Shown here one piece after another: positions 4,996 through 60,940 of a stretch of 64,000 nt of DNA. This stretch comes from an uncultured Verrucomicrobiae bacterium. Lineage in GTDB: Bacteria > Verrucomicrobiota > Verrucomicrobiia > Limisphaerales > JAFGQR01. The notes under the pieces were generated by a model that made no database searches, had not been told where the DNA came from, and saw nothing but the letters and a program-made list of their open reading frames with translations. Position 1 is the stretch's first letter, and every line of letters begins with the position of its first letter. The stretch is taken from contig CAWBHS010000038.1 in the NCBI GenBank assembly GCA_963788655.1, positions 182,728-246,727 on the forward strand. The letters run 5' to 3'. The position numbers and the translations under genes are program-made.

Positions 4996-5639
4996 TCATT
5001 TTGGTCTTTGAGTTCGCCAATCAGCGTTGCGCCTCGACCGGGGTGGCAGCATGTCGAGTCCGCCATTCGTTGGGTGAAGTTCCTTCCCAGCCTTGAAACG
5101 CACCCGGCAGCCGAAATGGCTCTCCAACAACTCGCGATGCTGAACAGGACGCGTCAGTTCCAACCGCAGTGGTTTGATTTGGCCGTCAGTGCCCCGGCGA
5201 CCCACGCCCAGAATCCAGGACATCACCATATCAACCAGCACTGCGGGCTGAGCTTCCGTGGCTTCGACATAAAAGAACTCCACCGCGGCTTCCTGCGCTT
5301 GGCGGTGGACGCGAATTTCTTCCGGCAGGTCAGTCGTTTGTAGCGACCGAGTCGCTCCAGAGAATCTCCAAAGGTCCGGCTGCATACGACGGCAATGGCC
5401 GCCGGGTGGAACCGCTCCAGTCGTTGTTCTGCGCCCAGCTTCAAGGCGATGCCCGGATCGGAATTCATTTCGCCAACGCTCCGCCAAAGCGCGAAGGCTT
5501 CAGCCGTCGTGACGTAAACCTTCTCCAGTTGGAAAAGGCCCGGCGGTAATCCTGCGCGTCGAAGTAGTGCCGGCAATGCAATCTTATGGTCTTCGAACCG
5601 CTGTGCCCAGGTGCGGGAGATTCGTAATCGATCACTCAT
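4996..5639 (-). pseudogene. AraC-family regulator; ligand-binding domain only, frameshifted, HTH lost
   Basis: MSDRLRIS...LERLGRYKRLTC continues in another frame as PEEIRV...LLESHFGCRVRFKAG, then ends; no HTH. Confidence 0.7.
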
Positions 5640-5889: not shown

Positions 5890-6005
5890 CATCTCCATGA
5901 GTACGTTCGATACCAATCTCGTTCTTCCACGTGAAGTATTTCGATTGGCGGTCGTAGCGAGTGCCGCGGCCATCGTTATCGCGCATCCGAGCAGTGAGCC
6001 GACGG
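5890..6005 (+). pseudogene. RadC (JAB domain) fragment
   Basis: ISMSTFDTNLVLPREVFRLAVVASAAAIVIAHPSSEPT resembles the RadC PREVF...AHNHPSGDPT motif, with HNH degraded. Confidence 0.65.
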
Positions 6006-6164
6006 CTTCATACCCCGCGTCGCGCTGGCTGAGTGCCGAGCTCCGGAGCGTTACCCCGGCTGAGCTCCATTTTCCCTTGCCCACAAAGCATTGGCGGCGA
6101 TGCCCTCATTCGTTAAATCACCGCAGACCGCGGCGGGAAAATCCCGTGGTTGCTGGGCACGCCT

Positions 6165-7361
6165 TCAGTTCGGACTGATTGAGTGACTCTGGAAATGTGG
6201 ACGCAGCACCCTCATCTGTGGCCGATCCTGCCCGTTCTTCGGTTCCAAGGTAAACATGTAATCACCCCACCACGGGCCTGCCGCCCACCAAGTGAAGCCG
6301 GCCCATACGTCCCGGTTCTGTTCCATAAACCGGAGCATGTCGTCCGTTGCCTGCAGGGCCGTCTCGTTGTTGGCTGCTCCAAACTCGCCCAGGAATGCCC
6401 GGTGCCCATGCGTCCGACACCACGACGTGACTTCCTGTAAGCGCTCGCTGCCGATAGTCCTGCTTACCGCCTCGGGCTTGGTGCCCGAACTGTTCTTGTC
6501 CAGATACTGGTGAACCTCAATCAAGTAGTGATCCAGCGGGTCAACGACCTTGAGCATCACTTGGGCGTTCCGGCTTGAAATCCAACTATGTGCCCCGGTC
6601 CACGAGTTGCCGGGCACAAGGATCAGATTGGTCGCGCCCACATTGCGGATTGCGCCGATCACGGCGTTTGCTGCCGTCAACCATTGATTATTGGGCATAT
6701 CGTGTGGTTCGTTCATCAGACCAAACCAGACCCGCGGATGGTTCTTAAACGGCGTCACCAACCTGGACCAGAAATCGGCAAACGCTGCGTGAGGCACTTC
6801 CGGACTGCCGATGATTTTCCCCCCATAGCGGGCATAATCGTGCGGATCCAGGATGATCACCAATCCCCGCTCGTTTGCTGTGCTCACGACTTTCTTCACG
6901 CGCTCCAGCGCGGCGCTTTCGAGCGGCTGTCTTAAAACCGGCTGCAGGTCTGCCCAGCGGAACGGGAAGCGGATAATGTTGACTCCGTTGCGGACGAAAT
7001 AGTCCATGTCCGTGGCGGAGGGATAGATGTAATGCTTCCCGTAGGCTCGAGTTACGCTTGCTTTCGTCGGCCCAAACTCCCCACCGGCCAAGTTGACGCC
7101 GGTGAACTCTAATGGTGCAACGGATCGAGATGACGAACCCGTGCTGTTCTTGGTCGGCTCGACAGAGGCGCGGGAGAGTGTATCGGCCGCAATGGCTGGG
7201 CTCAAACTCGTCACCAGGAGGAGGATAAGCGCGAAAGCCCATTGAATAACACCAGGCCGTGGAAACGTGCCGACGGGATGCAGCCAGCCACAGCGCCGCG
7301 TGTGCGCAAGCCGCCACCGTCCACAGAGATGCCTATGAGTTGTTGCCCGAGACTGAGCCAT
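6165..7361 (-). CDS. Glycoside hydrolase family 5 endoglucanase
   Basis: GVNLAGGEFG, IRFPFRW, LDPHDYARY, LMNEPH (acid/base), HQYLD, FLGEFG (nucleophile), WWAAGPWW; start uncertain. Confidence 0.9.
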   Translation of the reverse strand: MAQSRATTHRHLCGRWRLAHTRRCGWLHPVGTFPRPGVIQWAFALILLLVTSLSPAIAADTLSRASVEPTKNSTGSSSRSVAPLEFTGVNLAGGEFGPTKASVTRAYGKHYIYPSATDMDYFVRNGVNIIRFPFRWADLQPVLRQPLESAALERVKKVVSTANERGLVIILDPHDYARYGGKIIGSPEVPHAAFADFWSRLVTPFKNHPRVWFGLMNEPHDMPNNQWLTAANAVIGAIRNVGATNLILVPGNSWTGAHSWISSRNAQVMLKVVDPLDHYLIEVHQYLDKNSSGTKPEAVSRTIGSERLQEVTSWCRTHGHRAFLGEFGAANNETALQATDDMLRFMEQNRDVWAGFTWWAAGPWWGDYMFTLEPKNGQDRPQMRVLRPHFQSHSISPN

Positions 7362-7442
7362 GTGGCGTCTGACGAGAGCAATAGCAAGGCTATTCAAGAT
7401 TGCTCCCCGAGCGCTGAGGTTGTCGGCTCGATGGATCACTTC

Positions 7443-7514
7443 GCCTCCTGGCAGCAGCCTGCAGGCTTTCTTTGTAAGCAAGCCGGGCCGGGGCAGCACC
7501 GGCGGGAGGCTCCA
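7443..7514 (+). tRNA. Atypical tRNA-Thr(TGT)-like
   Basis: Acceptor GCCTCCT/GGGAGGC + T + CCA; anticodon loop TTTGTAA; T arm GCCGG-GGCAGCA-CCGGC; D arm degenerate. Confidence 0.7.
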
Positions 7515-7629
7515 GCGCCTGCGATGCAATGACACATCGCCAATTGCAAATGGCCGAAAAGAGGCAGGGAGGTAGGGCTTTCCTTGGACGATTTGCTCTT
7601 TGCCATTGGCCATTCGCGTAAAGCGCGCC

Positions 7630-7706
7630 GCTCGCATAGTCCAACCGGCAGAGACCCGACGTCGAGAGCGTCGCCAGTGCAGGTGCGAATCCTTCCGCGA
7701 GCACCA
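7630..7706 (+). tRNA. Atypical tRNA with GAG (Leu) anticodon and short variable loop
   Basis: GCTCGCA/CGCGAGC + A + CCA; anticodon arm CGACG-TCGAGAG-CGTCG; T arm GCAGG-TGCGAAT-CCTTC. Confidence 0.75.
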
Positions 7707-7774
7707 GCCTGCGCTCGCCGAGCTTCCGCCTTCGCCTGCTTCGGCGGGACGAGTCGGCTTGGCGAACCGAATTC

Positions 7775-7848
7775 AGCCTGCAAGCATTAAAGTGATACAA
7801 CGGACTTTTAATCCGTGGAACCGGGAGCGTTACCCTGGCGGGCCACCA
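7775..7848 (+). tRNA. Degenerate tRNA-Lys(TTT)-like
   Basis: AGCCTGC/GCGGGCC + A + CCA; anticodon arm ACGGA-CTTTTAA-TCCGT; T loop AGCGTTA; single mismatches in acceptor, D and T stems. Confidence 0.7.
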
Positions 7849-7851
7849 ATT

Positions 7852-7906
7852 TGCCAGGTCGTCTAACAGTCGGACATCGCCCTTTGAAGGCGAGCGTGGT
7901 GGTGCG
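7852..7906 (+). pseudogene. 3'-truncated tRNA-Gln(TTG)-like
   Basis: TGCCAGG-TC-GTC..GAC D arm; anticodon arm TCGCC-CTTTGAA-GGCGA; GGTGG-TGCG then breaks off. Confidence 0.6.
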
Positions 7907-8067
7907 TCTGCAAGTCGCGACAGCGACGGTCCATTCTCGGGAAACTGGCTGCAGGGCCGGGAGGCCAATCCATCCCCGGCAGCCAGTTTAATTGCGGAGT
8001 GAGGAATGCGGATTGCAGAGCATCTGCTGAGATTCCGCACTCCGAGCTCCAAATTCCGCGTTCAAAT

Positions 8068-8141
8068 CGCTCGGTGGTGAAATAGAATCACGTCTGGCCT
8101 ACACCCAGAAATCGAGGGGGCAGAACCTTCCCGGGCGACCA
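8068..8141 (+). tRNA. Atypical tRNA-Val(TAC)-like
   Basis: CGCTCGG/CCGGGCG + A + CCA; D arm GTGA-AATAGAA-TCAC; anticodon arm TCTGG-CCTACAC-CCAGA; T arm GAGGG-GGCAGAA-CCTTC; all four stems pair. Confidence 0.8.
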
Positions 8142-8564
8142 TGGCTTCGCCTCTCGGCTATAGCCCAGCAGGCCATTTGCCTCGTGGTGCTATTAGTCAG
8201 ATCGGCCTGCTTCGGCAGGCTGATGCGGACGGCCAGATAGATTCAAAATTCGAATGTAATCCCTGAATTGGACAACAAGTTCCCTCTGCGGGCCGGAGGC
8301 TGGTTTCAGCCAACTTGGAGCGGTTTGGTTCCCGCTTCTCCCCCATGTGGCGCCGCAAAAGGGCGCGTTTCGTGCCAAAAGCTTGCGGCACGCGGACGGT
8401 ATGATCGGCCAACCCGTCCTGTAGCGGGTCTTCAGGTTGGCGTATTTTGAGATCAGCATGAGCAGCGCCGACCGATCGTTCGCCAACTACCCGAAACAAA
8501 CCTGCCGCTGATATGCTGACCAGGCCGGTTTCTTTGGGCTGCTTTTGAGTGCATTTACCGTGAC

Positions 8565-9721
8565 ATGAACCGGCAAGCGTCAATCACGCGTCGCTCGCAA
8601 AGTGGGATTCGTGGCTGCCCTCGGGGCTGTGGGAGCCCTGGTGCTCCTGTTTGCGGCGCCCATTCGCATCGACCGTCCCGCACCGTTCATGTCGCCAGCA
8701 GGTTACATTCGGAGCGTCTTTTTGGGCGCTTCGGCTGTTGTTCCTACCGGTCGTGGCGTCGCCCTCTTTCCGCTTTTCCGATAGAACGGAAGAAACTCCC
8801 TTCTGGGAGTGTCTCCATTTGTAGCCTGCCTCCTCATCGTCTTGCCAGAGGGCTGCCTTTCGCGGTCTGACCCGGATCACTCCTCCTCTGCAACGTTCGC
8901 AGACGCCCGGGCGATCGCCGGGGTTCGAGAAATGGTTAGGCTGGGGCCGCCGGGTGCGTTCACTTCATTTTCTTGCGCTTCGCGCCGCTCTGGACGTTCT
9001 GGTCTATTCGTCTTTAGTGGGCGTTGGCCAGGCAATCAGGAATTTTCGAAGTTCGCAGGAGCGGGAACGGCAGGCGGCCGAATTAGAGGCCAGGCTCACA
9101 AGCGCCAAACTGCAAGCGCTGCGGATGCAGATCACCCGCATTTTCTTTCAACACGCTCGACTCGATTGCCGCGTTGGTTTATGTCAACCCGCGAGCGGCC
9201 GACGAGATGCTGGGTGATTGAGCGAGTTGCTGCGCCGCTCTCTTCATTCGATGGCGGAACAGGAGTTTCCCCTGGGGCAAGAGCTTGAATTCATTGGGGC
9301 CTATCTCAGCATCGAGCAAAAGCGTTTTGGCGAACGGCTTCGACTGGAACAGAGCGTCCGGATGAACTCAGGAAAGCCCTGGTCCAGCTCTCAATCTTCA
9401 AGCCCTGGTCGAGACGCTATCGACACGGCATCGAACCGCGGCGAGGCCCGGGGCTCATCGCGATCGAGGCACAACAGGAAGATCAGCATCTGCACCTGAT
9501 TGTCCGGGACAACGGCAGGGGCTTGCCGCTCGCGGATTTGAACCGCACCGTGCGGCGTGGTATCGGGCTGGCCAACACCAGCAAGACTGCACGGACTCTA
9601 TGGCCAGGACCAACGTTTCTCGTTCGGCAGGGCTGAACCTCAAGGTTCAGTCGATATTCACCTCCCCTTTCACTTGGAGCCGGTGCATGTTCCCACCATC
9701 TCGAACGAGCCAGCCGCATGA
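8565..9721 (+). pseudogene. LytS/YehU-family sensor histidine kinase, multiply frameshifted
   Basis: Fragments in several frames: TM segments, KLQALRMQI, LSELLRRSL, LGQELEFIGAYLSIEQKRFGERL, VRDNGRG, GIGLAN; immediately upstream of a LytTR regulator. Confidence 0.8.
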
Positions 9722-10479
9722 AAATCCGAGCACTCATCGTGGATGACGAACCGTTGGCAAGGCAGCGTGTTCGTTTGCTATTGAGTGAAGAACCTGACGT
9801 GGAGGTCATGGGAGAAAGCGAAGATGGTTTTGCGGCGGTAGACCGAATCCAGGCAACCAAGCCGGACCTGGTCTTTCTCGACGTGCAGATGCCGGACATG
9901 GATGGATTTGAGGTGTTGCGACGAGTCCCGCAGGCATTGCTGCCGGTCGTGATCTTCACGACGGCTTACGACCAGCACGCGCTTCGGGCGTTCGAGGTGA
10001 ATGCGCTGGATTATCTCTTAAAGCCATTCAAGCCCACTCGGTTCAAGGAAGCGGTCCAGCGGGTGCGGGACCTCATTGCCAACAAACAGGTCGGCGTCGC
10101 CGCCCGCGGGCTTCTCGCGCTCTTAGGTCAGCCGCCGGCACTTGCAGGTCAACTCACTCGATTGGCGGTCAAGACCCCGGGCAAGATCACGTTTGTGGAG
10201 TTGGCCCAGATCCAGACCATCGAGGCCGCCGGCAAATACGCTGTCGTGAATGTCGGCAAGGAAAATCATATCCTGCGCGAGACCATGAGCGCGTTGGAAT
10301 CCCGTCTCCCTCCGCAACGATTCCTGCGCATCAGCCGCTCGGTCATCGTCAACATTGACCAGGTCCAGGAGCTTCAACCCCTGTTCAAGGGCGAGAACGT
10401 GGTCTTGCTGAAGAACGGGAAGAGCTATCCCACGACACGTCCGCTTCGCGAACTCCAACAAAGACTGGAATTCCGGTAG
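9718..10479 (+). CDS. LytTR-family response regulator
   Basis: IVDDEPLAR, FLDVQMPDMDG, FTTAYDQHA, FLRISRSVIVN. Confidence 0.93.
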   Translation: MKIRALIVDDEPLARQRVRLLLSEEPDVEVMGESEDGFAAVDRIQATKPDLVFLDVQMPDMDGFEVLRRVPQALLPVVIFTTAYDQHALRAFEVNALDYLLKPFKPTRFKEAVQRVRDLIANKQVGVAARGLLALLGQPPALAGQLTRLAVKTPGKITFVELAQIQTIEAAGKYAVVNVGKENHILRETMSALESRLPPQRFLRISRSVIVNIDQVQELQPLFKGENVVLLKNGKSYPTTRPLRELQQRLEFR

Positions 10480-10742
10480 AGCCTGAGATTTTCATTTCGC
10501 GGAAGGTCTCAAGCACCGACTCAACGTGCGCAGTCTGGGTGGTTTTGCGTTTCAATGGGTGCGCTCCTGACGGGGATCTCAACATGTGATCGACTCGGCG
10601 GGGATCAGGTTCATTCCTTCTCGCTGGCGTTTCGCACCAGAATTACCCGCCTTCGTTCCAAACCGAAAGCCAACTCCCAGAAATTCGCGCACAATGGTGC
10701 AGCGAAAGTGAACTTAGAGCTTCAATGGAAAAGCAAACGAAA

Positions 10743-11063
10743 ATGAAACGGAAATATCTCTTCCTGGCAGCAGCAGCGCTGCTCGTCGCCGGAGGATTGT
10801 GCCTCGTTCGGTCGGCCTGGCGCACGCAATCGTTCCCAAAATCGAGCACGGACGTCGGCCTTAAAATGCCACGCGACCAACCCCAGTCCAACCAGGTGCT
10901 CGGTTCTCCCGATTCGCGCCTGGGGATCGGCTCTGAAATGCCAGGCGGCCAACACGAGTCCGGCCAGATGCTCCGGCCTCCCAATCTGAATCGGCGGTTT
11001 CTGGACTTCACTCCGGAACAACGGGTCGAGTTCGCAAGACAGGGGCACGGCCCCGGAGGATGA
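10743..11063 (+). CDS. Small exported or membrane-anchored hypothetical protein
   Basis: MKRKYLFLAAAALLVAGG signal/anchor; co-oriented with the next gene. Confidence 0.55.
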   Translation: MKRKYLFLAAAALLVAGGLCLVRSAWRTQSFPKSSTDVGLKMPRDQPQSNQVLGSPDSRLGIGSEMPGGQHESGQMLRPPNLNRRFLDFTPEQRVEFARQGHGPGG

Positions 11064-11103
11064 GAAATATCTGCCTAACCCGACGACCACCAATGACTGA
11101 ACT

Positions 11104-11874
11104 ATGACTCTGCTTATGAAAACATACCCTCTTGAGGCGAACTGCTGCGCAGGGAGACGCAACCGCCCGACCCGGTGTTACAACGCGCTCAAAAACAATC
11201 TGCGACGAGCTTTCGGATTCGGATTTCGGGCTTATTTCGATTTCGAAACTCGGATTTCGGACTTCCGACGCGCCATTACTCTCATTGAATTGCTTGTGGT
11301 GATCGCCATCATTGCCATTCTGGCGGGCCTGTTGCTGCCCGCTTTGGGCCGTGCGAAAGCCAGAGCCTACAACGCGGCTTGCGCGAACAATCTTCGGCAA
11401 CTGGGGATTGCCACCCGTCTTTATTCTGATGACCACCAGGAGCGCTTGCCGAGTGCGGAGATCCTTCCCACGCTGCCCATCGATCCCCAAAATCCGTTAC
11501 CACGTATCTGCGATGTCCTGGCGCGTTACGTTGGCCGAACCACTGGCACCACCCCAAACAGTGCAACGGCCTTCAAATGCCCGGCCGATCAACGGGGTAG
11601 GTTCACCGCCGAAGGATCGAGTTACGAATGGAATGCCGAGCTGAACGGGCATCGCATTGATGAAACTCGAACCGATAGCGCCTTCCTTTTATTGCAACCG
11701 GGGAACCTCTCCGGCGGAATTACAAACTTCGTCCTAACGTTTCCTCCAGGAACGACTCCGCTCTTTCTCGATTATGACGAGTTTCACCCTCGTCCACCCG
11801 AATCCGGCAAGAACGTTGTCTTTATGGACGGGCACGTGGCACCTCTGGAAGCCATTCGCCACGACTCCGAGTAA
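11104..11874 (+). CDS. Prepilin-type N-terminal cleavage / H-X9-DG domain protein
   Basis: [40 protein letters not shown]...NVVFMDGHV. Confidence 0.9.
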
Positions 11875-12261: not shown

Positions 12262-12373
12262 TTCCCATCTCATCAAAGAACAAACACCTCGGGGTGAAAC
12301 ATCAAGCGTGAAGCGTGAATACACACCGCCGCTTCTACGACTTTTCACGCATCACGTTTCACGCATCAATTTT

Positions 12374-12556
12374 ATGAGCAATGTTCTGAACCAGACGATT
12401 GTGCTGGTGTTGAACCGCAATTGGCAGGCGATCAACATTCGCACGCCGCAGGACGCGTTCTGTCAGATGGCGACGAACGTGGCCACGGGCCTGGACATTG
12501 AAAGCGAGGCTTGCATCCGTCCCGTCACTTGGGATGCAACTTATTCACCTAATTGA
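12374..12556 (+). pseudogene. N-terminal fragment of an HNH endonuclease
   Basis: MSNVLNQTIVLVLNRNWQAINI matches the VLVLN-type HNH N-terminus; truncated before the HNH motif. Confidence 0.65.
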
Positions 12557-12603
12557 CATTTGTTTTACAAGCGGCGGTATCCGGTTCATCCTGCCGTAGT
12601 ATT

Positions 12604-13839
12604 ATGACATCACGCGAACGAGTTCTGACCGCATTAAACCACCAGCCGCCGGATCGCATTCCCATTGATCTCTCCGGACACCGTTCCTCCGGTATTGCGG
12701 CGATTGCGTATGCCCGGCTGCGCGATTACCTCGGGCTGCCCCCAAAGCCCATCCGCGTTTACGATCCGGTCCAGCAACTGGCCATCGTGGACGAGGACGT
12801 GCTCGCGCGTTTCCGGGTGGACACCATCGAATTAGGGCGGGCGTTTGCTCTGGAAGACAAGCATTGGGCCGACTGGGTGTTGCCGGACGGCACGCCTTGC
12901 CAGATGCCGGTCTGGGCATTGCCGCAACAGGAAAACGGCGGTTGGGTGCTGCGTTCGCCCAGCGGACGCGTGGTCGCGCAGATGCCGGAAGGCGTGCTCT
13001 ACTTCGAGCAAACATATTATCCCTTCGCGGAGCAGGATGATTTGGATCGGATCGAGGAATTGTTCGACGAAGGAATGTGGACCGGCGTCAAGTCGCCCCC
13101 CGGACCGCTGGTTGCCGGACCGGACGGCGCCAAGACCTTGGCTGCGGGCGCCCAACGGCTGCGTGAACAAACCGACCGCGCCATCCTGGGATTATTCGGC
13201 GGCAATCTACTGGAGATGGGCCAGTTCTTTTATCGCAACGACAACTTTCTGATGCTGCTGGCGGGCGATCCCCAACGCGCCCACGCGTTCCTGGACAAGG
13301 TGGTTGAAATCCATCTCCGCAACCTCGACTGGTTCCTCGGCGCGGTGGGACCTTACATCGACATCATTCTATTTGGCGACGATCTCGGCATGCAGAAGGG
13401 TCCCCAAATCTCGCCGAAAATGTACCGCGAGTTTTTCCAGCCGCGGGAAAGAATCCTTTGGCAGCGGGCCAAGGAACTGGCGCCCAAGGTCAAGATTCAA
13501 CTCCATTGCTGCGGCGGCGTGCGCGAGCTGTTGGACGGGCTTATCGAAGCGGGTTTGGAAGCCATCAACCCGGTGCAAATTACTTGCAAAGGGATGGACC
13601 CGGCCGGACTGAAAAAGGATTTTGGCAAACGCCTCACCTTCTGGGGTGGCGGTTGTGACACTCGCGATATTCTCAGCCAGGGCACCCCGCAACAGGTGCG
13701 GGACCACGTGCGGCAGTTGTTGGAGATTTGGGCGCCTGGCGGCGGATACGTCTTCCAACAGGTGCATAACATCCTGGCCGATGCGTCGCCGGCCAATGTC
13801 GTGGCGATGTATGACGCGGTGAATGAGTTCGCCGGTTAA
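12604..13839 (+). CDS. Uroporphyrinogen decarboxylase-like (MtaA/CmuA-related) protein
   Basis: MTSRERV...PPDRIPID, FGDDLG, HCCG, INPVQ, FWGGGCDT, GGGYVFQQVHNI. Confidence 0.85.
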   Translation: MTSRERVLTALNHQPPDRIPIDLSGHRSSGIAAIAYARLRDYLGLPPKPIRVYDPVQQLAIVDEDVLARFRVDTIELGRAFALEDKHWADWVLPDGTPCQMPVWALPQQENGGWVLRSPSGRVVAQMPEGVLYFEQTYYPFAEQDDLDRIEELFDEGMWTGVKSPPGPLVAGPDGAKTLAAGAQRLREQTDRAILGLFGGNLLEMGQFFYRNDNFLMLLAGDPQRAHAFLDKVVEIHLRNLDWFLGAVGPYIDIILFGDDLGMQKGPQISPKMYREFFQPRERILWQRAKELAPKVKIQLHCCGGVRELLDGLIEAGLEAINPVQITCKGMDPAGLKKDFGKRLTFWGGGCDTRDILSQGTPQQVRDHVRQLLEIWAPGGGYVFQQVHNILADASPANVVAMYDAVNEFAG

Positions 13840-30630: not shown

Positions 30631-30984
30631 TGGTGGAGGCGGCGGGAATCGAACCCGCGTCCCTAGCCAAGTTGTCAGCAGCGCCTACATGTTTAGCCGG
30701 AAGAGAGTCTCAGCGTTTGGATAACCTTCCGGCACGAATCCATCCGCCCAGTCCGCATGTAAAATCTTCAGGCCATTGCGCGCCGACTCCGCATTGACCC
30801 TAACCTGCTGTGGCGTTCGTCCGGCGTAGCAGGTGTCCACCGGCAAACGTCGCGGCGTAGTTAGGCCGCGAGAGCTAATTCATTGTTAGCAGTTAATTTT
30901 TGACCCGATGATTAACGAGGCCAACGGATCGTCCTCGACATGCCGCCTCTGACGCATCAACCAGGTCGAAACCAGTACGCCCCC
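30631..30984 (-). ncRNA. ssrA: tmRNA
   Basis: 5' GGGGGCG pairs with 3' CGCCTCC-ACCA (G3-U70); T arm GCGGGTTCGATTCCCGC; tag reading frame ANNELALAA* (about 30890-30861). Confidence 0.96.
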
Positions 30985-59767: not shown

Positions 59768-60940
59768 GCAACGTGTTTTCCAGATGCCCCATCGGGGCAA
59801 CCGAGAATAGCCCAGCGTTTCAACGCTGGGTAAACGCGAGTGGAGATTTTCCAAGTCCCGCAGGGACGGCAGTCGTTTTCAAAACTTCCGGGGCAATGGC
59901 GCGGGGATTCTTTTGTCCCTACGGGACTCGATTCCCTTTGGCCCGGAAACCCACCGTTGAAACGGTGGGCTATTGTCGGGCGTCCCTCCGGGACGATGGA
60001 GGCGCACGATGAATCCGTGGCCAATGGTGAAGCTGGGCGAGTGCTGACGCCGACAGGGCGCGGCGAAAGTGTTGACGCTTCGAAGGAATATCGCCTGCTG
60101 GGAATTCAGCTCGACGGGCAAGGGCGGTTTTGCGTTGCCGAAAATGATTTCATTTACAGCCGGTTATTTGCCTGTCGCGGAGCATTCGGCGTCATCAGCA
60201 AAGACTTGGACGGCTGTTTCGCCTCTGGCGAATTCCCGGCATTCATTCCCGTAACGGGCAAGATTGATGTCGAATTTCTGAAATACTGGTTTCGGCTGCC
60301 GAGCGTCATTGCCACCGTGGACGCGGATTGCTCCGGTAGCACGCCGCTGACGCGGAATCGGTTCAAAGAGCATTTCTTTCTCGCGCTGGAAATTCCGTTG
60401 CCGCCGTTGGTAGAGCAGCGGCGGGTGGTGGCGCGGATTGAGGCGCTGGCCACTCAAATCCACGAAGCCCGCACTCTCCGCCACCAAGCCGCCGAAGAAA
60501 CCGAGGCACTTTTTGAGGCTTTTCTGGGTGCTCAATTTGATTCATCCGAATGGCCTCTTAGGTTATTGCCGGATGTCGCAGAAGTTGCGCGAGGGAAATT
60601 CGCGCACCGGCCACGCAATGAGCCACGTTTCTATGGCGGCGAATTTCCATTCATTCAAATCGGGGACATTTCAAATTCCGGTCGCTACATCCGCAATCAT
60701 TCTCAAACGCTCAATAAAGATGGATTGGCAATCAGTCGGATGTTTCCCGCTGGCACGGTTGCGATAGCAATTACCGGCGCAACAATTGGTGTCACCGGTA
60801 TTCTTGGTTTTGATTCATATTTTCCGGATAGCATCGTCGGCGTTCAGGCAATGCCAGAATCAGCCACGCCGGAATTCATTTACCTTGCGGTGGAACATGC
60901 CAAGAAAATCGCGCTCGCAGAAGCGACGCAAACAACTTTG
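59764..60940 (+). pseudogene. hsdS: Type I R-M specificity subunit, interrupted and truncated
   Basis: WPMVKLG, IPLPPLVEQRRVVARIE, HRPRNEP, PFIQIGDI, ITGATIG; palindromic insertion after the start; 3' end lost. Confidence 0.8.
59786..59996. repeat. Composite palindromic element inserted at the 5' end of hsdS
   Basis: AATAGCCCAGCGTTTCAACGCTGGG / CCCACCGTTGAAACGGTGGGCTATT, with GTCCC..GGGAC units. Confidence 0.75.

Follow-up and report, generated by a model that had tools for sequence, protein, structure and literature searches.

Long arrays of transfer RNA (tRNA) genes known as L-arrays, which hold up to 43 genes and occur at a frequency far above that of accretive arrays, have been described in seven phyla including the Verrucomicrobia, and a conserved HNH gene accompanies them (Santamaria-Gomez 2021, PMC8421152). 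The trn operon of Anabaena is induced by translational stress and co-regulated with rtcB, and 23 of its 26 tRNAs are aminoacylated in vivo (PMC8421152). A second described type is the tRNA array unit, defined as at least 20 tRNA genes at a density of at least 2 per kb (Tran 2016, PMC4758250) and found in Acidithiobacillus, Firmicutes and mycobacteria and in their phages and plasmids (PMC4758250; Morgado and Vicente 2018, PMC5966550; PMC12803027); one of these three accounts regards such dense arrays on mobile elements and phages as a putative anti-defence system. Here we analyse a 64,000-nucleotide stretch of DNA from an uncultured Verrucomicrobiae bacterium (assembly GCA_963788655.1, contig CAWBHS010000038.1, positions 182,728 to 246,727; hereafter the window), in which an original prediction, made from the sequence alone, had pointed to a hidden row of five co-oriented cloverleaf-like sequences. 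We conclude that these five units are very probably what is left of the middle of an accessory array of the L-array type, which was acquired horizontally and is now fragmented and in decay in this genome. Genomes are numbered with G (G000 is the window's own), their contigs with C, and the loci fetched for comparison (relatives, IMG/VR viral contigs and the Anabaena plasmid) with L.

All elements of the predicted row are present, and their coordinates, T-loops and scores are collected in Table 1. The covariance model R1, which was trained on 80 array tRNAs of relatives with the window left out, detects all five units, with E-values from 1e-13 to 0.003. Units 1, 2, 3 and 5 have the 7/4/5/5-bp stems, the 7-nt anticodon and T-loops and the discriminator-CCA end of an elongator tRNA cloverleaf, and all four end in an encoded CCA as had been observed; unit 4, being truncated, does not fit this cloverleaf. 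A scanner written for the analysis, which ignores loop sequence and allows at most two stem mismatches, finds Thr-TGT (7443-7511), Leu-GAG (7630-7703) and Val-TAC (8068-8138) on the plus strand, each followed by CCA. Lys-TTT (7775-7848) lies just beyond its two-mismatch limit, and no cloverleaf was found on the minus strand. The absence of a canonical TTC T-loop from every unit is confirmed in the sequence. Among the four complete units G55 is present in all, TTC in none and the D-loop GG in unit 2 alone, and none of the four carries the full set of universal elbow nucleotides G18, G19, U54, U55 and C56. Further peculiarities are the A54:T58 swap in the T-loop of unit 3, the 5-nt variable loop of unit 2, and C33 in units 2 and 5.

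The spacers between the units are 68-161 nt long and single-copy in G000. The hairpins reported from them are confirmed, with arms at 7942-7956/7975-7989, 7995-8007/8032-8044 and 7546-7555/7608-7617. A sixth 5′ end had been suggested near 8179; its 12 bases are indeed identical to the starts of Gln units in relatives (for example at L016 10293), but so short a match does not exclude chance. No Y-RNA family matches the window between 7000 and 8700 even at E<=10, and the units differ from YrlA and other bacterial Y RNAs in having complete anticodon arms and acceptor stems with CCA.

A DNA search for related sequences covered 41 genomes: G000, a second member of its genus, and 39 further members of the order. 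Orthologs of the units, in the same order and with 75-98% identity, occur in 13 of the 40 other genomes (14 of 41 with G000), and a chance origin is therefore excluded. Units 1-5 match the 3′ end of the arrays in G005, G037, G039, G040 and others, with their order kept. Unit 1 has orthologs in L016, L017, L020 and L024, complete orthologs of unit 4 are found in six loci (L017, L018, L019, L022, L023 and L024), and unit 5 is 93-98% identical to its orthologs in L017, L019 and L021. In DNA comparisons the array homology of the window lies at 5993-6055, 7434-8149 and 12271-12534, and the sequences of relatives skip the spacer at 7907-8067. One might still suspect chance cloverleafs, or foreign DNA that was mis-binned or mis-assembled, on the grounds that ARAGORN and default Rfam are silent here (see below) and that the estimated contamination of the bin is 5.6%. 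With orthologs in the 13 genomes and in 80 kept loci, R1 E-values down to 1e-13, and array fragments that lie interleaved with ordinary genes as four pieces along 13 kb of a 247-kb contig, such an artefact is exceedingly improbable.

The full arrays with covarying stems that were to be looked for in relatives exist. Intact relatives hold about 20-30 co-oriented tRNA genes whose stems covary; these genes cover most amino acids, nearly all encode CCA, and an HNH gene follows them, frequently accompanied by a Ro60 (rsr) gene with a Y-RNA-like element and by RtcB. Nine relatives' loci gave 151 scanner candidates, 112 of which are followed by CCA; the other 39, most of them with two mismatches and outside the arrays, were dropped. 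Nineteen arrays are large (at least 20 members), each with 20-29 anticodons within the 10 kb examined. The array of L017 is interrupted by a gene for a 595-residue protein with TROVE and vWA_Ro60 domains and is followed by genes for a 194-residue HNH endonuclease, RtcB and an SPFH/Band-7 protein. In relatives the HNH gene is full-length and lies directly 3′ of the last tRNA. The link to RNA repair that had been suggested is thus real in the relatives, where Ro60, RtcB and HNH genes are embedded in or adjoin the arrays.

This gene content recalls the rsr-yrlBA-rtcBA RNA-repair operons of Salmonella (Chen 2014, PMC4201824; Hughes 2020, PMC7790460), since the relatives' arrays likewise embed a TROVE and vWA_Ro60 protein, a match to RF01656 (sbRNA/Y-like) and RtcB. 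Those operons, however, carry a few non-decoding Y RNAs, whereas the units here are full cloverleafs with anticodon and CCA, and the window itself has neither Ro60 nor RtcB. In two loci the RF01656 match immediately precedes the Ro60 gene, together with a tRNA-like element that has a canonical T-loop (RF00005 positions 7-64; called 'Trp' by ARAGORN); the two elements probably represent a Y RNA of the YrlA type and a stem that binds Ro60.

The arrays stand beside ordinary tRNA genes. In G000, ARAGORN finds 50 dispersed tRNA genes over 115 contigs and RF00005 gives 46 matches; canonical Thr-TGT, Leu-GAG, Lys-TTT, Gln-TTG and Val-TAC genes are all present elsewhere in the genome. G037, which has an intact array, gives 60 RF00005 matches, 19 in the array region of contig C121 (30-58 bits) and 41 dispersed (52-76 bits). 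The arrays are therefore a second, accessory set parallel to the canonical one. A unit of about 90 nt, called tRNA-Ile(tat) by ARAGORN, also occurs within the G55 arrays (L023 reverse strand 9858-9947, L016 9167-9258, L019 9124-9217); the L023 copy has a canonical elbow (TTCGAAT and a GG D-loop), a 23-nt variable region and no encoded CCA.

In G000 this array is in pieces. Broken stem pairs were counted in alignments of every complete unit with orthologs taken from the 80 loci that had been fetched independently. Unit 5 has none in 21. Unit 3 has 3 in 21 (its orthologs have none in 30 of 32 and one in the other 2), and because of these three broken pairs it is probably a pseudogene. Unit 2 has 2 in 20 (7636:7696 A:C and 7680:7694 C:T), with none broken in 21 of its 31 orthologs and at least 2 in five. 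Unit 1 has one window-specific broken pair in the anticodon stem (7469:7479 T:C) and a second mismatch which is common to its orthologs and probably reflects an unusual D-arm. Judged by its sequence, unit 5 (Val-TAC) is the only one that looks fully functional. Unit 4 is cut inside the T-loop, its homology stopping at 7906, so that the 3′ half of the T-arm and the 3′ strand of the acceptor stem are missing. About 4 kb downstream of the units lies the remnant of the HNH gene, where tblastn matches residues 1-54 (12374-12535); the remnant breaks off where an unrelated gene (12553-13839) begins.

The other parts of the system have fared no better. The array-type rsr (Ro60) gene survives in G000 as a 46-residue fragment on C75, and the sole RtcB match (on C62) is a distant relative with 28% identity. 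Between the array pieces lies a GH5 cellulase gene on the opposite strand, from 6165 to about 7300, and the array is interrupted also by a frameshifted LytS-type histidine kinase gene, an intact LytTR response regulator gene and a prepilin-like gene. Altogether four separate pieces are interleaved with ordinary genes along 13 kb of the one 247-kb contig. Other remains are found 400 bp ahead of the window, on C75 (a Y-RNA leader, the 5′ end of rsr and a piece of HNH) and on C109, and C49 has a single Asn-GTT unit with G55, no CCA and two mismatches. With only a fragment left here and debris scattered elsewhere, this copy has probably ceased to function as a system, and in G000 the whole system is most likely dead. 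The prediction of a partly decayed array is borne out by the truncation of units 4 and 6, the broken stems of units 1-3 and the reduction of HNH to 54 codons; its picture of an accessory array holds, but what the window contains is only a fragment of a former island. The LytS-type gene is split over two frames (the His_kinase match covers 9218-9499 only) directly upstream of that for the LytTR regulator (8954-9499 and 9718-10479, both on the plus strand), and is likely a pseudogene or the product of a sequencing frameshift.

It could be argued that the units are a working mini-operon, trimmed to a functional Thr, Leu, Lys and Val set, as they are co-oriented, four are full cloverleafs with encoded CCA (R1 E-values from 1e-13 to 2e-6), and the Val-TAC unit is unbroken and nearly identical to its orthologs. 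This we consider quite unlikely, because units 1-3 have six window-specific broken pairs, two units are truncated, and the spacers are far longer than the roughly 6-26 nt of the closest intact array (L017). Moreover, the upstream part of the array, with any promoter it had, has been replaced by the convergent GH5 cellulase gene, no promoter-like signal lies before unit 1, and the partner genes are lost. At most, the Val-TAC unit, and perhaps the Thr-TGT and Leu-GAG units, could still yield usable tRNAs if transcribed.

Table 1. Coordinates of the array remnants in the window and of associated elements in relatives and elsewhere in G000
Feature	Sequence	Position	Strand	Details
Unit 1, tRNA-Thr(TGT)-type	window	7443-7514	+	T-loop GGCAGCA; discriminator T, encoded CCA; R1 33.5 bits, E=2.1e-6
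Unit 2, tRNA-Leu(GAG)-type	window	7630-7706	+	T-loop TGCGAAT; discriminator A, encoded CCA; R1 48.7 bits, E=2.6e-10
Unit 3, tRNA-Lys(TTT)-type	window	7775-7848	+	T-loop AGCGTTA; discriminator A, encoded CCA; R1 44.9 bits, E=2.4e-9
Unit 4, tRNA-Gln(TTG)-type, truncated	window	7852-7906	+	R1 match 7861-7893 (positions 10-43) only; 21.2 bits, E=0.003
Unit 5, tRNA-Val(TAC)-type	window	8068-8141	+	T-loop GGCAGAA; discriminator A, encoded CCA; R1 61.9 bits, E=1e-13
Window-specific spacer	window	7907-8067	+	two strong hairpins, 7942-7989 and 7995-8044; single-copy in G000
Stub(s) of next (Gln-type) unit	window	8142-8189	+	array homology stops at 8149; 8178-8189 are the first 12 bases of a Gln unit
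Isolated array fragment, Ile-TAT-like unit	window	5993-6055	+	78-84% identity to L016 9182-9244, L024 6921-6983 and the matching stretch of L019
HNH leader and first 54 codons	window	12271-12534	+	76-82% DNA homology to L016, L017, L019 and L024; tblastn 85% identity, residues 1-54
tRNA-like/RF01656 elements upstream of Ro60	L017	4421-4499, 5477-5546		
tRNA-like/RF01656 elements upstream of Ro60	L024	4190-4269		
75-95-nt repeat, example copy	G000, C22	83120-83194		
75-95-nt repeat, example copy	G000, C26	69899-69989		

How closely does this island resemble the described L-arrays? Like them, it and its relatives form long co-oriented runs that duplicate the housekeeping set, are distributed in a patchy way that fits horizontal spread, and are linked to a homologous HNH gene and to rtcB. 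The HNH protein encoded beside the Anabaena trn operon is a homolog (42% identity over 79 residues, E=9e-21). The original proposal of an accessory, horizontally spread array akin to the cyanobacterial trn operon is supported. In length the window, with four complete and one or two truncated units, falls short of an L-array, and 19 arrays of relatives do not. The redundancy expected of an L-array is present, as G000 and G037 have canonical sets elsewhere, and so is the HNH gene, as the stub at 12271-12534 in the window and at full length in relatives. With five units in 0.7 kb the window has the density of a tRNA array unit sensu Tran 2016 but not the number.

One difference lies in the elbow. 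The scanner parses 19 tRNAs of the trn operon on the delta plasmid of Anabaena (Nostoc) sp. PCC 7120 (NC_003273, its identity confirmed by the record); 18 of the 19 have TTC together with GG D-loops, and one has GGCAGTA. Thus the Anabaena elbows are canonical, whereas the arrays here have G55 in 98% of their tRNAs and mostly A18; they also have mostly short-variable-loop Leu tRNAs, Arg-GCG in place of Arg-ACG, and no Trp or Tyr. The words T-loop, T arm and elbow are not used in the available text of the L-array description (PMC8421152). Altered T- or D-loops are likewise not mentioned in what is available on tRNA array units, and 'T-loop' occurs 0 times in the accessible text of PMC4758250. 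The one Anabaena exception is Ile-GAT (L028 reverse strand 5508-5579), whose GGCAGTA T-loop and D-loop without GG resemble the Verrucomicrobial class.

Few nucleotides in biology vary as little as U55 (pseudouridine 55) and G18. They form the tRNA elbow, a structure recognised by RNase P, TruB, the CCA-adding enzyme and T-box leaders. The ribosome, too, contacts the elbow, at all three tRNA sites (PMC4810234). Among the 112 array tRNAs of the nine relatives' loci, 109 have G55, 2 have TTC at 54-56, 14 have GG in the D-loop and 19 have C33. The corresponding numbers for the housekeeping tRNAs of G000 (47 of the 50 ARAGORN calls could be parsed) are 0, 44, 47 and 0, with U33 in 45. A larger sample gives the same picture: 80 contigs with HNH-linked loci hold 892 CCA-encoding cloverleafs on the HNH strand, 872 with G55, 10 with TTC and 163 with C33. 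The original prediction took the array to be partly decayed, but its odd T-loops do not reflect decay: they are a conserved class trait, with G55 in 872 of 892 tRNAs.

A MAFFT alignment of 80 array tRNAs (A2) shows how the elbow has changed. Pairing is found in 96.1% of its stem cells, where shuffles reach 56% and slid partners 36-44%, and double changes occur at all 21 stem pairs. An A precedes the column of the 19:56 partner in 64 of the 80 tRNAs and G55 stands opposite in all 80; therefore G18:U55 has become A18:G55. The 54:58 pair is T:A in 55 tRNAs and the swapped A:T in 6. The 19:56 pair is GC in 57, UA in 3, UG in 3 and CG in 1 and is unpaired in 14, with 7 double changes, which is suggestive but not strong. 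Placing position 19 by a fixed offset was tried and discarded, as it gave G:C in only 23 of 43 housekeeping tRNAs; the counts above come from column counting on A2. We found no account of G55/A18 tRNA arrays in the literature searched, which lay outside most subscription journals and supplements, where a prior description may exist.

Apart from the elbow, array tRNAs keep the features by which synthetases know their substrates. In a survey of 981 G55 tRNAs with encoded CCA, the Ala tRNAs have G3:U70 in 21 of 21 (vs 2 of the 960 other tRNAs), the His tRNAs G-1 and C73 in 30 of 30, and the Gln tRNAs U1:A72 in 92 of 98. The acceptor stem is initiator-like in 11 of 15 CAT units (10 without a standard 1:72 pair, one with T:G), and the discriminator bases follow the usual bacterial pattern. 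Selection maintains both the cloverleaf fold and the synthetase identity of the array members. With regard to the roles originally proposed (stress-backup tRNAs, anticodon-nuclease decoys or RNA-repair substrates), the preserved identity elements favour putatively chargeable, decoding tRNAs over pure decoys. The sets have peculiarities of their own: 18 of the 19 large arrays include Arg-GCG and none of the 19 includes Arg-ACG (one is found in L023), the variable loop of the Leu tRNAs is mostly 5 nt long, U37 occurs in all 26 Asp tRNAs of the arrays, and within the 10 kb examined none of the 19 arrays has a Trp or Tyr tRNA. Several isoacceptors are provided for Arg, Leu, Thr and Val.

Array tRNAs might, on the other hand, serve off the ribosome, as nuclease decoys or as donors for non-ribosomal aminoacyl transfer. 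The C33 and U37 bases could be taken in this sense, the authors of the L-array study raise sponge and other non-canonical roles (PMC8421152), and the non-proteinogenic tRNA-Gly of S. aureus is a precedent, as it lacks G18, G19, U55 and C56 and yet is charged by the normal synthetase (PMC4574755). The Staphylococcus case, however, concerns one amino acid, three genes, cell-wall synthesis and U18/U19 or C18/U19, whereas the arrays here have dozens of anticodons, a consistent A18:G55 and a retained 19:56 pair. A range of 20-29 anticodons per large array, several of them isoacceptors, makes sense for decoding only; a decoy meant for an enzyme that reads the elbow would be expected to retain the canonical form; and neither the initiator-like CAT units with their 1:72 mismatch nor the whole tRNA sets of recoded type in phages (below) fit such a role. 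We regard an off-ribosome role as very doubtful. By analogy with Anabaena, and in view of the Ro60 and RtcB linkage, intact arrays would supply chargeable, decoding back-up tRNAs under translational stress or tRNA damage, and the recoded elbow may make these tRNAs invisible or resistant to a factor that reads the canonical elbow, or allow such a factor to tell them apart.

Several points weigh against our reading of the window as the decaying remnant of such a back-up array. Units 1, 2 and 5 keep good cloverleafs with CCA, so that residual function is possible. G000 is a draft bin, 86% complete with 5.6% contamination; partner genes may therefore lie in unassembled DNA, and the scattering of the debris may in part be due to assembly. 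The function ascribed to intact arrays is borrowed from a cyanobacterial one with canonical elbows (18 of 19 TTC), and C33, the U37 of all Asp tRNAs and the lack of Trp and Tyr are unusual for efficient decoders. No public sequencing run contains the window stretch (the best share was 0.07), and a promoter and terminator scan of 7100-8500 gave nothing above chance, with one promoter-like site in unit 5 (0.5 in shuffles) and no terminator. Contigs from four metatranscriptome runs, belonging to four studies, cover the tRNA units only and join across the window-specific spacers, and one of them restores an intact 3′ end of the Gln unit; they therefore come from relatives and not from G000. These contigs are consistent with transcription of relatives' arrays in nature, with DNA carry-over possible.

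The recoded class is widespread in the Verrucomicrobiota and is present in phages. When one genome per species was scanned with the HNH alignment, relatives proved to be encoded in at least 551 stretches, of which the best 80 were taken as loci; being anchored on HNH, this sample is biased toward HNH-linked arrays. Nearly all of the best 80 bear Verrucomicrobiota, Verrucomicrobiae, Limisphaerales or Pedosphaera metagenome-assembled genome labels, with a few others. At least 5 CCA cloverleafs are present in 60 of the 80 and at least 15 in 28, counts bounded by the 10-kb flank and by contig ends; Ro60 accompanies 21 of the 80 and RtcB 33. In 301 sampled genomes of the order the HNH scores are bimodal, and about 83 have the array-type gene (E<=1e-80). 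A distant HNH paralog (38% identity, about 150 bits; C26:96044-96598 in G000) occurs in almost every genome sampled from the order, irrespective of arrays.

In IMG/VR, 49 loci encode HNH relatives. Cloverleafs with at most one mismatch, C56 or a CCA tail, and A/T at position 58 were counted there, and five contigs proved to be of the recoded type: L110 (G55 in 21 of 23 tRNAs, encoded CCA in 18), L148 (36 of 38, CCA in 1), L153 (34 of 34, no encoded CCA), L155 (33 of 35, CCA in 2) and L157 (34 of 35, CCA in 1). Almost all tRNAs are TTC in L126, L128, L129, L130, L146, L147 and L156. The tRNAs of L153 look canonical apart from the changes of the D-loop GG to AG and of TTC to TGC; an AG and no GG is found in 78-86% of the tRNAs of G55 arrays, vs GG in 95 of 96 tRNAs of five TTC arrays. 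By their gene content the G55-array contigs are real phages: L148 has a T4-type major capsid gene (E=8e-78), L110 a lambda-family portal gene and RtcB, and L155 a gene for a Ro60-like protein. A further scan of viral contigs did not depend on HNH but sought pairs of G55-type T-arms spaced by one tRNA; it yielded 9 stretches in 8 contigs (a canonical control pattern found at least 124). Six of these contigs were new, and four of the six hold arrays, with G55 in 30 of 31 tRNAs in L295, 22 of 24 in L293 and 14 of 16 in L300, and a mixture in L299. These four, with G+C contents of 0.43-0.55, have no HNH, Ro60 or RtcB within 10 kb, and in L292 and L296 the strict scanner found no cloverleaf. L299 (15.6 kb; array at 8944-11370 of the reversed locus) has 21 CCA-encoding tRNAs, 10 with G55 and 8 with TTC, and may be an intermediate or a recombinant between the elbow types.

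Among cultured phages, the array of Xanthomonas phage X1 is canonical (TTC in 24 of 30, G55 in 0). When compared with cultured phages, the phage G55 arrays gave matches at the level of single tRNAs and no array-level relative or cultured carrier, and a DNA search with an array of relatives gave one trivial match among annotated plasmids and four single-tRNA matches among phages.

Phage tRNAs are known to evade tRNA-targeting defences by mutations of the anticodon loop (van den Berg 2023, PMC10264068), and the tRNAs of T5 counter PARIS and the retron PtuAB (PMC11464382, PMC11555353). The arrays here resemble these in their systematic departures at conserved positions, in the presence of recoded arrays in phages (L148, L110) and in C33, which is an anticodon-loop change. 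They differ in that the main change is at the elbow pair 18:55 and concerns the whole set. It is conceivable, and we suggest it only tentatively, that the window is the relic of an undescribed natural orthogonal class of tRNAs, with complete parallel sets in which A18:G55 stands for G18:U55 and identity elements are kept, carried by Verrucomicrobial islands and diverse phages in an arms race fought at the elbow and not only at the anticodon loop. Recoded sets would then keep translation running when a defence or toxin that reads the elbow or T-loop disables the ordinary tRNAs; or a phage might destroy the tRNAs of its host while sparing its own recoded set.

A related idea is that the elbow is a self/non-self tag, read by HNH, by Ro60/RtcB or by phage enzymes for sparing or selective repair. 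G55 and A18 are found in nearly every member, canonical and recoded arrays are mostly separate (as in L153 against L126, L146 and L147), the HNH gene directly follows the array in Verrucomicrobial loci, and the HNH domain is weakly similar (E=1.7e-4) to PtuB, PtuAB being among the anti-phage tRNases (PMC13056530). But three of the four arrays on HNH-independent phage contigs are G55 arrays, the fourth is mixed, and none has HNH, Ro60 or RtcB within 10 kb; the Anabaena array has HNH yet canonical elbows; and the PtuB likeness is limited to the HNH domain and no better than the Cas9 likeness. A tag of this kind is, on this evidence, unlikely. A PDB search with the HNH alignment matched the HNH domain only (HNH domains of IscB and Cas9 and a 112-residue HNH endonuclease), with no match for the N-terminal 100 residues. 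Island proteins were also considered as a defence system with PADLOC and were not counted as one, since only HNH-domain likeness to Cas9 and PtuB and a match of the SPFH protein at the level of a helix-turn-helix were obtained.

That default annotation would miss the array had been foreseen, and it does. ARAGORN on the whole window reports none of the five units and finds a transfer-messenger RNA (tmRNA) only; Rfam at the gathering score on the 64 kb also reports none, its matches being the tmRNA and two Acido-Lenti-1 RNAs. When the filters are made permissive for 7000-8700, RF00005 finds 8068-8138 (unit 5) at 39 bits, above its gathering score of 29, 7630-7703 (unit 2) at 27 bits, under that cut-off, and a partial match at 7861-7893 (unit 4) at 15.6 bits, with units 1 and 3 not reported. 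Since ARAGORN and default Rfam penalise the recoded elbow, their silence does not show that tRNA genes are absent. Covariance-model matches and covarying homologs, whose absence had been named as telling against the array, were found by way of R1 and the relatives' arrays. The same caution applies to annotation of the relatives: 11 fetched loci gave 82 RF00005 matches and at most 15 ARAGORN calls per locus, and ARAGORN reports 14 and 15 genes in the arrays of L016 and L017, where 25 and 26 are present.

For G000 itself the locus is of modest importance, a decaying relic. If hundreds of genomes and several phages hold whole recoded sets that are chargeable, as their sequences predict, the elbow can be rewritten wholesale in nature. 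The purpose of L-arrays and phage tRNA sets would then gain a handle, namely whatever reads G18:U55 but not A18:G55, and natural orthogonal tRNA scaffolds would become available for engineering.

Some minor features were observed along the way. A spacer of the L016 array (about 8083-8184) contains a repeat of 75-95 nt that occurs in about 30 copies, in both orientations, on about 22 contigs of G000; it resembles a repetitive extragenic palindromic (REP) or miniature inverted-repeat transposable (MITE) element. The tmRNA gene of the window (30631-30984, minus strand; found by ARAGORN and at 173 bits by RF00023) is complete and encodes the tag peptide ANNELALAA, and its tRNA-like end is a weak match to R1. 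The two Acido-Lenti-1 RNAs (RF01687) are divergent copies about 120 bp apart, at 59785-59830 on the minus strand (39 bits) and 59950-59995 on the plus strand (51 bits).

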